Source: an uncultured Poribacteria bacterium (GTDB lineage: Bacteria; Poribacteria; WGA-4E; WGA-3G). Taken from it: a stretch of 64,000 bases of DNA. Numbering within the stretch: the stretch's first letter is position 1; every line of letters begins with the position of its first letter. The stretch is taken from contig OX638351.1 of assembly GCA_951813565.1 (NCBI GenBank), positions 3,840,001 to 3,904,000 of the forward strand. Reading direction: 5' to 3'. Of this stretch, positions 52,742-62,982 are shown piece after piece. A program made the position numbers and the translations under genes. The notes under the pieces were generated by a model that made no database searches, had not been told where the DNA came from, and saw only the letters and a list, made by a program, of their open reading frames with translations.

Positions 52742-52828
52742 TTTTCACTTACCGATGTCTAAGTTTCTTAACGCTCTTCCCGTCAAATCCCCATGCTTTA
52801 GCTTGTGGGATGTAAACGGGCAAAAACC

Positions 52829-52857
52829 TTGACATTGAAATGAAACCCTGATATACT
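52829..52857 (+). promoter_or_regulatory. Sigma70 promoter for tnpB/omegaRNA
   Basis: TTGACA-17 bp-TATACT. Confidence 0.8.
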
Positions 52858-52941
52858 AATTAGACCGTTTCAGTGGTAGTTGTTGTAGCAGCTGCCACAC
52901 CACTACAATGGGAAACGGACTCTTCACAGAAACAGCATATC

Positions 52942-54054
52942 ATGAGAAAAACCTATAAATATAAGATACAAAACCAAAAGAACACACACAAACTTGGCAA
53001 CCTGCTTGACGATATGTGGGAAATCCACGTGCATATCATGCGTTTGGCACGTAGGTATTACCTTATATTTGGAAAGAACCTATCCGCGTATCGTATAAAC
53101 GCACATGTTGCGAAACTCAAAAAGCGGACAAAACCGCATTGGGCAGACTTGCCGAGCCAAGTTGTGCAAGACGTTGTGCTGCGTTATGGTAAATCTCAAG
53201 ACGCTTTCTTTGAGAATATCGAAGACCGAAAAGCGGGCAAAACAACGCGTAAAGTGGGTAGACCGAAAATCAAACCGAGACACAAATACAATTCTATGAC
53301 ATTCACTCAAGCTGGCTATACATTGGAAGATAAGCGTATCAAAATCAATTGTATAGACACATGGTTTTCCTACCACAAACACCGTGATTTCAAAGGAACT
53401 ATCAAGACGATCACCATCAAACGTGACAGGTGCGGTGACTATTGGATATGCTTTTCGTGCGAGAATGTTGACGATTCCGAACCCAAACCCAAGACGGGTA
53501 AGAGCGCAGGATTTGATTACGGAAACAAAACATTCCTCACAAGCGACGAAGGCAACAAGACAGAATCACCAAAACTTTTCAAGCAATCACTCAAGACGCT
53601 GCAATCTCTCAACAAAGCACTCAGTCGTAAAGTCAAAGGTTCTAACAACTATTATCGTGCGTGCCGTGCTTTAGCAAGGCAACACAGAAAGGTTGCACGA
53701 CAAAGAGAAGATTGGCAATGGAAACTTGCCTCAAAACTTTGTGTAGAGTTTGACACACTCATTTTTGAAACGCTGAACCTTGACGGTATGAAACGATTAT
53801 GGGGACGTAAAGTTTCTGACCATTCTTTCTACCAGTTTCTTCAGATATTGGAACAGAAGTGTGCGAAGCACGGCAAAAAACTTTTGCAAATCTCTCAATG
53901 GATAGCAACGACAAAACCTTGCAGTGATTGTGGATACCATAACGAAGAACTCTCTCTCGCAGATAGACAGTGGACATGCCCCGAATGTGGCTCACACCAC
54001 GACAGAGACACCAACGCTGCTATCAATATCAAACGGGCAGGCTTGGCTGCCTAA
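52942..54054 (+). CDS. tnpB: RNA-guided endonuclease TnpB
   Basis: TYKYK N-terminus; RuvC D (GFDYG), E (FETL), D (DRDTNAAINI); CSDC/CPEC zinc finger. Confidence 0.95.
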   Translation: MRKTYKYKIQNQKNTHKLGNLLDDMWEIHVHIMRLARRYYLIFGKNLSAYRINAHVAKLKKRTKPHWADLPSQVVQDVVLRYGKSQDAFFENIEDRKAGKTTRKVGRPKIKPRHKYNSMTFTQAGYTLEDKRIKINCIDTWFSYHKHRDFKGTIKTITIKRDRCGDYWICFSCENVDDSEPKPKTGKSAGFDYGNKTFLTSDEGNKTESPKLFKQSLKTLQSLNKALSRKVKGSNNYYRACRALARQHRKVARQREDWQWKLASKLCVEFDTLIFETLNLDGMKRLWGRKVSDHSFYQFLQILEQKCAKHGKKLLQISQWIATTKPCSDCGYHNEELSLADRQWTCPECGSHHDRDTNAAINIKRAGLAA

Positions 54055-54146
54055 AGTGGAGCGACAATAAGACGGTGGACGCTAAGCGAAAACCGCAGTC
54101 GCAAGGAAGCACAAGCCCCTACCTTTAGGTAGTGGGTACCTATGAC
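54028..54146 (+). ncRNA. TnpB omegaRNA (reRNA) scaffold, copy 1; predicted guide begins at 54147
   Basis: Overlaps the tnpB 3' end; hairpins ggcag/ctgcc and gcgac..gtcgc; RE hairpin; possible pseudoknot gcttg/caagc. Confidence 0.8.
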
Positions 54147-60606: not shown

Positions 60607-60893
60607 TGTCCACCTCCAATATGCAAAGGATTGGTATATTTTATTGTTTTTGTCTAAAATTGTCAATCAATTAATAACCACATCAGGACATTTTATTCTT
60701 CAAAAGTCTTAATCATTATTATTAAGGCTTTTCGCTGTGTATCAATGTAAATGTTCAAAAGAGAAAATAAATAGTCCTACTCCATATTAAAATGATTGAC
60801 TCATAAATCCTTCTACGGTATAATCAAGAGAACATTGGAACTTCATTACCAGAACGATACGTTGGACACTTTTCATCAATAAGGAGATAATCT

Positions 60894-61691
60894 ATGTATG
60901 AAAAAATGATATTCATCCTAACCTTAAGTATTTGCGCGCTATTTCTCACTGTTCTTTCCGTTAATGCACAATTTCCTGAAGATGGTGTCGTGGGGTACTG
61001 GCCATTTGACGATGGGACAATTAATGGCAACACTGTTCAAGATGTGTTGGGTGAAAACGACGGTACACTTGACGGAAATCCTAAGTCTGTTGCTGGTAAA
61101 GTTGGCAAGGGTCTTGAATTTGATAGTGACAACTTTGTCCATATTCCTGGTACAGATTCGTTGAATTTCAATGGTAAGGAGGCAATGACTGTTGCTGCGT
61201 GGATAAATGGTGATAGCGATTCTCCTGTAGACGGTGCTGTTCCCGGTGTATGCTGCGGAACGATTGTTGCGCAACGCGATGTAGACGGTTGGGCACTACG
61301 GTTTGATGGTAGAAATGCAGCAAGCGAATTAGAATTTATTACGCAACCGGCTTGGCAAGGCGATGGTGGATTTGGCGTTGCTGCCCAGCCAAAAGGTGAA
61401 TGGCATCATCTTGTTGGAGTCGTTGACGGAAAGCAGAAATTTCTGTACCTTGATGGCAAATTAGCGAAGGAAGGTAATTTCAACGGTCCGATGTCAACAG
61501 GTGGCACAGAAACTGAGATTGGCAGTGCTCAGAAGGATGGGGGCTTCATAGGAATTATTGATGAGGTTGTAATTTACAATAGGGCACTTTCTGAAAAGGA
61601 AGTTGAGCAGCTTTTTGCTGCAGAAGGTCTTCCTGTGCAACCCCAAGGTAAACTTGCTATCCAGTGGGGACAGATTAAATCTTCTTTTTAA
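60894..61691 (+). CDS. Secreted LamG-like jellyroll protein
   Basis: YW.FD, WHHLVG, G.IDEV.IYNRALS; C-terminal VQPQGKLAIQWGQIK. Confidence 0.88.
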   Translation: MYEKMIFILTLSICALFLTVLSVNAQFPEDGVVGYWPFDDGTINGNTVQDVLGENDGTLDGNPKSVAGKVGKGLEFDSDNFVHIPGTDSLNFNGKEAMTVAAWINGDSDSPVDGAVPGVCCGTIVAQRDVDGWALRFDGRNAASELEFITQPAWQGDGGFGVAAQPKGEWHHLVGVVDGKQKFLYLDGKLAKEGNFNGPMSTGGTETEIGSAQKDGGFIGIIDEVVIYNRALSEKEVEQLFAAEGLPVQPQGKLAIQWGQIKSSF

Positions 61692-61692
61692 C

Positions 61693-62100
61693 ACTCCCCC
61701 GTCAAATCCCCATGCTTTAGCTTGTGGGATGTCCACGGCTAACAATGTGATGGACATCACAAAATGTCCAGCGAAAGCGGAATAAAACCCATCGCTATAA
61801 CTAAATCTATAAAGTTGGTGGATAGCGTCCATATCAAGCTACTGCAGTAATGCAGACTGGAATGCGTGAGCGGAGGCAACCCCTCCCGAAGTCTAAGGAC
61901 TTGTCGCGTGGCGTGCCTGGTAGAAAGGGCAGCTATAAAATGGGTGGAAACAGAGCCAACCCACGACATTGCGAAAAATAAATCAAACGGGCAGGCTTGG
62001 CTGCCTAAAGTGGAGCGACAATAAGACGGTGGACGCTAAGCGAAAACCGCAGTCGCGAGGAAGCACAAGCCCCTACCTTTAGGTAGTGGGTACCTATGAC
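61693..62100 (+). mobile_element. Non-coding IS200/IS605 derivative: LE + ~250-nt structured insert + omegaRNA/RE
   Basis: 35-bp LE identity with 52779-52813; 118/119 identity of 61982-62100 with 54028-54146; preceded by TTAAC. Confidence 0.9.
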
Positions 62101-62184
62101 AAGGTTTTCATTTGAGATAGGCGGATTCACGTGTCCGCCATTTTCCAACTCAGTAGATACCACAAACGACCCAAAAGAAAAAAT

Positions 62185-62982
62185 ATGATTTCAAAGATAC
62201 TTATAATCCCCATTTTGAGTGTGAGCCTAATGTGTTTTGTTATTTCTAATTCTAATGCACAACTCCCAACAGATGGTGTCATTGGCTACTGGTCCTTTGA
62301 TGTTGGTACAATTAATGGTAAAACCGTTCAAGACATATTAGGTGAGAACGATGGTGAATTGGATGGAAATCCTAAAGTTGTTCCCGGTAAGGTTGGAAAA
62401 GCACTTGAATTCAATGGCGATAATGCCGTTCGCATACAAGGCAACGACTCGTTAAACTTCAACGGCGCCAAAGAAATGAGTGTCGTTGCTTGGGTTAATC
62501 CTGCAAGTGCTAAGCCTGTCAAAGGTGTAATCCCTGATACATGTTGCGGTACCATTGTTGGTCAACGGGATGCTGAAGGATGGGTACTCCGATTTGATGG
62601 GAGAAATGCAGGTAAGGAGATGTTACTTATAGCTCAACCAGGATGGCAAGGACACACTACCCTCGGCGTCCCTCCGTTTGCCCAAAACACCTGGCATCAC
62701 TTAGTTGGTATTGTTGATAACGACAAGCTGCTGCTTTATGTTGATGGAAAATTAGAAAGTGAATTCAAATACGACGGTCCGATGTCGACGAAAGGGACAA
62801 TGACCGAGATTGGGAATGCCAAGGCAGACGGAGGCTTTATTGGTATCATTGACGAAGTTCTGATTTACAACCGAGCGTTATCCGCTAACGAAGTGCGACA
62901 GGTCTTCAATGCAAAGGGACTGCCCGTTAAACCTCAAGATAAGCTCGCTATACGTTGGGGACAAATTAAAAAAGTACAGTAG
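62185..62982 (+). CDS. Secreted LamG-like jellyroll protein (close paralogue of 60894..61691)
   Basis: Same motifs including CCGTIV.QRD; C-terminal VKPQDKLAIRWGQIK. Confidence 0.88.
   Translation: MISKILIIPILSVSLMCFVISNSNAQLPTDGVIGYWSFDVGTINGKTVQDILGENDGELDGNPKVVPGKVGKALEFNGDNAVRIQGNDSLNFNGAKEMSVVAWVNPASAKPVKGVIPDTCCGTIVGQRDAEGWVLRFDGRNAGKEMLLIAQPGWQGHTTLGVPPFAQNTWHHLVGIVDNDKLLLYVDGKLESEFKYDGPMSTKGTMTEIGNAKADGGFIGIIDEVLIYNRALSANEVRQVFNAKGLPVKPQDKLAIRWGQIKKVQ

Follow-up and report, generated by a model that had tools for sequence, protein, structure and literature searches.

What stands in the place of the gene in an IS200/IS605 element that has the ends of a tnpB transposon and no tnpB? This question is raised by a short element in the stretch of DNA analyzed here, 64,000 nucleotides from an uncultured Poribacteria bacterium (contig OX638351.1, positions 3,840,001 to 3,904,000), referred to below as the window. 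To our knowledge, the known RNA passenger of IS200/IS605 elements is the group I intron of IStrons. According to the available text of one study (PMC10691335), IS200/IS605 elements were long thought to lack cargo genes. The original prediction for this locus, made from the letters of the window, was an RNA-only mobile unit in which a structured RNA of some kind (ribozyme, second guide scaffold, or regulator) is fused to a TnpB omegaRNA and uses TnpA and TnpB in trans. It proposed recurrence between the same ends, covariation, and Rfam matches as checks, and it would have fallen with a single-copy insert, a lack of covariation, an origin from a tnpB or iscB 5' region after loss of the ORF, or a lack of transcription.

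An RNA domain in place of tnpB

The 409-bp element at 61692-62100 is a gene-less IS200/IS605 derivative from a sponge-symbiont Poribacteria genome and is composed, from 5' to 3', of a left end, an RNA domain of ~235 nt (cargo A), an A-rich linker, and a TnpB omegaRNA/right end. The target motif TTAA (TAM; 61688..61691, + strand) lies outside the element and overlaps the stop codon of the LamG gene upstream; nearly all cargo copies are preceded by TTAA, TTAG, or TTAT. The left end (61692..61739, +), with a subterminal hairpin at ~61706-61730, is common to the tnpB and tnpA+tnpB elements of the genome. An extent of 408 bp (61693..62100) had been proposed, of which the end position stands; the start is most likely 61692 rather than 61693, because cutting after the 4-nt motif in tnpB siblings restores long host ORFs, as seen in 11 of 32 sibling copies. 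Likewise, the left end had been described as the same as that of the tnpB element, which holds for an identical core of 35 nt but not for the first few bases. The A-rich linker (61975..61981, +) joins the cargo to the omegaRNA scaffold and right end (61982..62100, +), a segment that starts inside the last codons of tnpB by comparison with the sibling. It is identical to 54028-54146 at 118 of 119 positions, and the single difference noted earlier is confirmed at position 62057. The interior, also as predicted, is no deletion remnant of tnpB, since comparison with the whole tnpB element returned chance matches alone (8 to 16 nt; best E, 0.14). A remnant of a tnpB leader or ORF was further rejected by comparison with 31 tnpB loci, none of which matched.

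The element is flanked by genes for a LamG (Laminin_G_3) protein (60894..61691, +) and, downstream on the same strand, its paralogue (62185..62982, +). A sigma-70-like promoter, assigned by a consensus match at 11 of 12 positions (60796..60824, +) in a search that found 5 such sites against 5.3 expected by chance, lies 5' of the upstream LamG gene and is the likely source of any read-through into the element; no + strand terminator was found ahead of the element. The candidate guide flank, predicted from TnpB biology (62101..62116, +), has no second TAM+guide site in the genome, and among the guides of 12 copies, one has a TAM+12-nt match, probably its own end. No clean empty allele of the insertion site was seen among 11 homologous loci. 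The sibling tnpB-only element (52772..54146, +) comprises a promoter, a structured leader, and tnpB (52942-54054, +; 370 aa; RuvC D-E-D residues visible) and is the likely source of TnpB for the gene-less element. By eye, the 5' leader of this tnpB (52855-52915; also L316, L317, and L322) has a possible pseudoknot inside a closing stem, and a leader of similar shape stands before cargo A at loci L127 and L132.

Cargo A is a structured RNA

The cargo A RNA is real and under structural selection. On the + strand, it begins with an invariant GUG, hairpin P1, and an invariant CAC in the P1 loop (61747..61769), the CAC being part of a possible 5' pseudoknot for which covariation was never seen. Hairpin P2, with a conserved asymmetric internal loop, follows at 61771..61795. 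The core (61819..61870, +) consists of hairpin D with a conserved AGC loop, a conserved linker, hairpin E, and a conserved single strand, and it is succeeded by the variable hairpins F and G (61871..61902, +), of which F is ~80 nt larger in subfamily L and G has a cUACGg loop in 16 of 40 members. In the 3' domain (61904..61974, +), the long stem J, in which a G.A mismatch is conserved, closes a three-way junction formed with hairpins H (61914-61931, +) and I (61941-61963, +); a second possible pseudoknot in this domain is 90% paired and has zero double changes. Among the stems read by eye in the original prediction, ctgca/tgcag, ggagg/cctcc, aagtc/gactt, tgcc/ggca, and gggtgg/ccaaccc belong to the covariation-supported fold, whereas tgtgatg/catcaca and cgctat/atagcg pair in the energy fold of this copy and do not belong to the conserved helices. 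The long-range tgtcg/cgaca pairing does exist, but in another register, 61904-61913 with 61964-61974 (stem J).

The covariation that had been looked for was found. Across 21 short-type sequences, 96.4% of the cells of the 60-pair structure are paired, compared with 33 to 41% in slid controls, and double changes occur in 17 of the 60 pairs against a shuffle mean of 9.6 (0/500 shuffles), although the structure was derived from the same 21 sequences and is flattered by both controls. Across subfamilies, double changes were found in 13 of 18 pairs of the 3' domain and in 11 of 22 pairs of the 5' domain. On a tree of 40 sequences and 52 pairs, with an alignment fitted to the model, there were 50 double, 59 single compatible, and 34 breaking changes. 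Under a strict tree-aware null over all pairs, only 2 structure pairs reach an E value of <0.05; a single pair from outside the structure attains 0.05, in a loop where the alignment is poor. Scanning for covarying columns without a filter gave too much noise to be of use, though it pointed to stem J. The excess of G-U over A-C cells (150 versus 13 in 40 sequences), together with the cUACGg loop, speaks for an RNA on the + strand. Of the unpaired columns, 64 of 134 are ≥95% conserved. The interior has a folding energy z score of -2.0 and the whole element one of -2.9, and over 14 relatives the scores range from -2.8 to +0.4; the case for structure is the covariation, and folding energy alone is a weak signal. 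A conserved protein gene was rejected, as lengths vary modulo 3 and ORFs are not conserved.

Copies and distribution

The predicted recurrence between these ends was borne out by blastn, which found 8 full copies in this genome with 92.6 to 100% identity and different flanks at each, plus one copy with an internal deletion. A covariance model derived from 21 relatives marks 13 cargo A places in this genome, 4 of them of the longer subfamily, and matches 27 of 151 genomes of the phylum (this one counted), all in one family (26 of 99 same-family genomes versus 0 of 51 in other families). Models made separately for the 5' half and for the 3' half gave the same distribution; the weakest of their matches were inspected and discarded. 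With one genome per species, the exact pattern retrieved 65 loci, every title of which is Poribacteria. Exact patterns and blastn were the searches used outside Poribacteria, which remote relatives could escape: they gave 2 loci in metagenomes, both short-type elements, none in viral contigs, and 3 chance matches each in plasmids and phages (cargo blastn; E of 3 or worse). Weak model matches L174 to L178 and L209 fall within coding or leader DNA that is unrelated, and they were rejected; the blastn match L013 and one spurious row of the 89-row element table were left out. At L174, L175, and L178, a conserved structured leader stands before short Cys-containing ORFs, possibly peptide precursors. 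A lone P1+P2 fragment of cargo A, lacking the ends of the element, lies at the same locus in two genomes (L134 and L141). In genome G031 (L036 to L086), ~28 near-identical long-type cargo elements represent a recent burst.

Ends, omegaRNA partners, and transposase supply

Short, long, and promoter-bearing subfamilies all carry cargo A, which is joined to at least five left-end and at least four right-end types. Wherever both were detected, the 3' domain and the right end lie on one strand, ~113 to 217 nt apart; the exceptions to a right end after the 3' domain are a few truncated or interrupted copies. No ORF follows cargo A in the inspected loci, no long conserved ORF lies inside the gene-less elements, and the omegaRNA fold is retained in gene-less copies with compensatory changes. 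The right ends finish in C or A. In a comparison with 42 tnpB ends from 5 genomes, the right ends of 8 of the 9 short-type copies here are 94 to 100% identical to resident tnpB right ends, a match that is not genome-specific, as three genomes share that tnpB subfamily. In a second genome, near-identical cargo is carried on two omegaRNA variants, each 97 to 100% identical to a resident tnpB; in a third, the best resident tnpB match to the right end of a cargo element is 84%. The long subfamily (~28 copies in G031) has no close resident tnpB right end, the match being confined to its 3' half, at 81%. Promoter-bearing members have the invariant GUG a few bases past a -10-like box, and an internal promoter is absent from the short and long subfamilies (69 of 72 elements).

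An intact Y1 TnpA of 139 aa is encoded elsewhere in this genome (at 228266), and both Y1_Tnp and TnpB genes are present in 5 of the 5 other carriers tested. The picture of a multicopy, RNA-only unit, whose conserved RNA structure is joined to a TnpB omegaRNA in a genome that also has intact tnpA and tnpB at other loci, is thus upheld. Because the same genome holds an ends-only element of 46 bp (C1 918764-918809), in which the left end is fused to the right-end hairpin, so much RNA is unneeded for the ends alone.

Relation to known RNAs and elements

Rfam searches by E value with the element and its relatives returned nothing relevant (best E for the element, 0.75), whether for HEARO, introns, or ribozymes, and core motifs of hammerhead, group I, group II domain 5, RNase P, pistol, and twister RNAs were found in 0 of 73 elements. 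HEARO/IscB/IsrB omegaRNAs (RF02033), to which the original prediction loosely likened the element's end, are similar in size and IS200/IS605 setting and exist in Poribacteria, but the link failed: no model or sequence match was obtained over 28 loci (best E, 0.23 to 1.1), and cargo A lies at the TAM end with no ORF after it. Neither an iscB nor an isrB ORF was found 3' of cargo A in the inspected loci, and the HEARO-like match of this genome lies elsewhere. The GUG start and the conserved AGC are shared with group II and circularly permuted group II introns, as the available text of PMC8637638 describes them, and prompted a search for such an intron; however, cargo A has no domain 5 or 6, positions 4 and 5 after the GUG vary, and it matches none of the Poribacteria group II loci compared. 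This candidate was rejected, with no RF00029 match in this genome and best E values of 0.23 and 1.8 for domain 1 with two covariance models over 20 intron loci; profile HMMs over 40 group II loci gave one match, on the opposite strand (E, 0.017), and remote homology is possible. RF00029 itself occurs in 67 of the 151 genomes of the Poribacteria phylum. By eye, L257, L260, L261, and L274 are ORF-bearing group II introns, apparently in tRNA genes, and L263 and L267 are apparently ORF-less ones, in genomes with 22 to 27 RF00029 matches each.

IStrons, which combine a group I intron with IS605/IS607 elements, likewise have, within a single transcript, a large structured RNA that separates the left end from the omegaRNA, according to the available portions of the sources (bioRxiv 10.1101/2023.11.20.567912; PMC13565253), but here there is no group I core (P7 motif in 0 of 73 elements), the ends are C or A instead of G, and copies are mostly intergenic. 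An IStron or another splicing intron was rejected, as was the splicing role considered in the original prediction: copies avoid ORFs (4 of 72 lie within them), no RNA joints occur in 3 runs, and no group I or II core is present. Antisense action on tnpB or tnpA mRNA was rejected as well, with complementarity no better than in shuffles. The likeness to IS1341-type tnpB-only elements (ISDra2/AmaTnpB type; PMC10278001, in the text available) lies in the ends and omegaRNA, which are the same as those of the sibling at 52772-54146, whereas cargo RNA stands in place of the promoter, leader, and tnpB. The expectations that the insert might be single copy, lack covariation, or be a tnpB or iscB 5' region after ORF loss are thus contradicted by the copies, the fold, and these comparisons.

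PATE-like elements and standalone omegaRNAs (Meers et al., PMC10055086; Altae-Tran et al., PMC10691335) have in common with this element, in the available text of both papers, the lack of a protein gene, IS200/IS605 ends, TAM-directed insertion, and an omegaRNA that needs TnpB in trans. As in PATE-like elements, the ends have subterminal hairpins shared with tnpA/tnpB elements, a fixed tetranucleotide, and varied flanks, and TnpA may excise and integrate the element; as in standalone omegaRNAs, the scaffold is homologous to that of a resident TnpB element and ends at the right end. The difference is an extra conserved RNA domain of ~235 to 320 nt, not derived from the parent and shared across end families, and no such domain is described in the available portions of these papers. 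Gene-less omegaRNA elements that borrow TnpA and TnpB are already described, and the new part is the cargo RNA. The literature searched, apart from most subscription papers and preprint supplements, contained no account of a cargo A RNA and no published work on TnpB in Poribacteria. Cargo A suggests an undescribed RNA partner in TnpB transposons.

Genomic context and transcription

Among the 72 elements with both ends and the target motif, 68 are intergenic and 4 lie in ORFs; 21 of 32 tnpB elements of this genome are intergenic. The intergenic excess is significant when pooled (P = 0.0003) but not within this genome (11 of 12 versus 21 of 32; P = 0.13), and the copies are not independent. Co-direction with the next gene was seen for 58 of 66 intergenic copies and for 14 of 20 tnpB elements, the sense bias of the cargo being not significantly higher (P = 0.08), and many cargo copies lie ≤50 nt from a co-oriented gene. 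The tnpB copies that interrupt ORFs in this genome are in sense orientation in 10 of 11 cases, and TTAG is just 1.4-fold commoner on sense strands.

Sixteen runs recorded as RNA contain part of the window. Of 3 RNA runs examined, 2 have contigs that span the whole element with flanks mostly uncovered; the third (X10) has little coverage of the cargo, from which nothing follows. Run X1 shows about the same depth over the cargo as over the right end, and in a run of unrecorded type the right end is ~10 times deeper than the cargo. No RNA joints were found in the 3 runs, in contigs that drop rare forms, and one RNA contig passes without a break from a flank into the cargo. The contigs are unstranded and carry no level, the samples differ, and DNA is possible as a source, and on the question of transcription raised at the outset, they give a weak hint that the element is transcribed. 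The genome encodes RNase J and Rho.

Possible functions of cargo A

TnpB ordinarily cuts its guide out of the mRNA that encodes it. The reading that we prefer, with a probability of roughly 40%, is that cargo A replaces the tnpB mRNA as a stabilizing and loading platform for TnpB made elsewhere. TnpA would copy the nonautonomous element from another element, and host read-through or, in some subfamilies, the element's own promoter would yield a transcript of cargo RNA, TnpB omegaRNA, and flank guide. TnpB made elsewhere would load on the omegaRNA and cut the empty donor site, whereby the copy would be restored; movement by TnpA and use of TnpB in trans are presumed here from published IS200/IS605 biology, in the available text of PMC10055086 and PMC10691335. 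In the most speculative step, a compact cargo A would shield the RNA from 5'-to-3' decay and from Rho and would keep the omegaRNA accessible, so that TnpB could capture it in trans and trim its 5' end. Better retention per copy would then be the selection that preserves the cargo fold.

Consistent with a platform are the fixed spacing between cargo and right end across end types, the maintained omegaRNA fold, the match of right ends to resident tnpB in short-type copies, and a fusion point that falls where a processed omegaRNA would begin. The presence of RNase J and Rho, the co-directed copies (58 of 66), the GUG near a -10-like box, and a second, unrelated pseudoknotted RNA at the same position in other gene-less elements point in the same direction. 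Cargo A may work like exoribonuclease-resistant RNAs (xrRNAs), which block 5'-to-3' exonucleases. Against it, the 64 of 134 conserved unpaired columns are more than a protective hairpin should need, and because of them a catalytic or protein-binding core fits equally well. In addition, the long subfamily has no close resident tnpB end and one genome has a best match of 84%, the sense bias does not significantly exceed the one seen for tnpB elements, and one of three RNA runs barely covers the cargo. Plain omegaRNA-only elements, moreover, work in trans without such a domain (PMC10691335, in the text available). PMC10278001 reports a processed omegaRNA of 126 nt for AmaTnpB, along with trimming of the omegaRNA 5' end by TnpB itself and processed omegaRNAs of up to 466 nt.

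The conserved unpaired columns bear most directly on two other readings, both improbable. Large ribozymes have a conserved unpaired core and variable peripheral helices, an arrangement that cargo A shares, and it would be, in the somewhat likelier of the two, a ribozyme of a new class that cuts a read-through transcript to free the omegaRNA or circularizes it, an analogue of the IStron intron but not a splicing intron. IS605 elements took up a ribozyme once before, in IStrons (bioRxiv 2023.11.20.567912, as far as its available text goes); yet no Rfam family and none of the core motifs named above match, no joints occur in RNA contigs (which drop rare forms), one contig runs uncut from flank to cargo, and TnpB is itself able to trim the 5' end, according to PMC10278001. 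The slightly less probable of the two has cargo A bind a second factor, either docking on the ribosome to seize new TnpB or recruiting TnpA, a repair protein, or a polymerase to the TnpB-targeted site. Its conserved loops and junctions and its fixed place 5' of the omegaRNA would suit such binding, and the loop of hairpin H may resemble tRNA D- or T-loops. SINE RNAs seize the LINE protein in a comparable manner. However, no partner gene travels with cargo A, complementarity to tnpB or tnpA mRNA is not above shuffles, and two unrelated cargos would have to converge on one partner.

Three further readings rank as less likely than these. The intergenic positions (68 of 72), the many copies close to a co-oriented gene, the presence of Rho, and the absence of an internal promoter from 69 of 72 elements would fit an antiterminator or stabilizer that lowers host harm by letting transcription cross the insertion into the downstream gene; this is nonetheless quite unlikely, as the cargo is also kept in promoter-bearing variants, tnpB elements have a similar orientation bias, and the intergenic excess within this genome is not significant, among copies that are not independent. 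Equally unlikely is a passenger RNA that acts in trans (a regulator or decoy) or leads a short peptide and has nothing to do with the omegaRNA. A frame of 10 to 20 codons with a T-x-C-P-x-K pattern starts from the conserved AUG/GUG in 33 of 43 sequences, so that a short GUG peptide may be a weak lead, but an intact stand-alone gene was never found, third codon positions are invariant and substitutions track the base pairing, the frame extends beyond 20 codons in 6 members and is lost in 4, and the distribution is patchy (26 of 99 family genomes). Least probable of all is that cargo A was the leader or guide scaffold of an unsampled or extinct ORF-bearing element and now hitchhikes. The structured leaders of tnpB genes here, the 466-nt length that processed omegaRNAs reach (PMC10278001, in the text available), and the exact-pattern searching outside Poribacteria leave room for it; it is already weakened because no inspected cargo match precedes an ORF and none of 31 tnpB or 28 IscB/IsrB loci matches, and the compensatory changes run through the gene-less lineages themselves.

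These cargo RNAs make it testable how a gene-less omegaRNA obtains TnpB in trans. If the domain stabilizes or loads the omegaRNA, it would serve TnpB editors as a naturally occurring enhancer of guide RNAs; if instead it has catalytic activity, it would be a new ribozyme.

Cargo B and other gene-less elements

This genome has five gene-less elements of 396 nt with a promoter and a different RNA, cargo B. The loci of this second family are C1 2117817, 2551445, 4520868, 4652139, and 4700835 (L215 and L277) and 5295840 (L216), together with L278 to L306. Cargo B is an RNA of ~175 nt with a covarying pseudoknot, followed by an omegaRNA. Double changes occur in 22 of 37 pairs of its fold, including 5 of 5 pseudoknot pairs, and its DNA matches 39 of 112 family genomes. 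At 21 cargo B loci, there is no long ORF at the cargo position, and the majority terminate in one of several kinds of omegaRNA-type right end. The cargo A 3' model has no match in cargo B, and because the two are unrelated, the architecture of a structured RNA plus omegaRNA arose at least twice. At least two unrelated conserved structured RNAs therefore occur in gene-less elements, each immediately 5' of a TnpB guide RNA, and both are new RNA families with ready natural variants for structure work.

Together, cargo A and cargo B could form a new class of IS200/IS605 RNA symbionts, in which a catalytic or factor-recruiting RNA is fused permanently to a TnpB guide RNA. Such an RNA would exchange ends and omegaRNAs with resident TnpB families and would spread as a parasite of both TnpA and TnpB that consists of RNA alone. 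We regard this broader reading as doubtful, behind the platform in probability; if true, it would amount to a strategy akin to that of SINEs or IStrons, with a ribozyme or an RNA-guided effector function of a new kind.

A third gene-less element of this genome (C1 963946, minus strand; L103) has its own promoter and another structured interior before the omegaRNA, with no relevant match in Rfam. At two loci of one genome (L015 and L022), a composite places a cargo A element just after the first domain of cargo B, and the cargo A element thereby gains a promoter.
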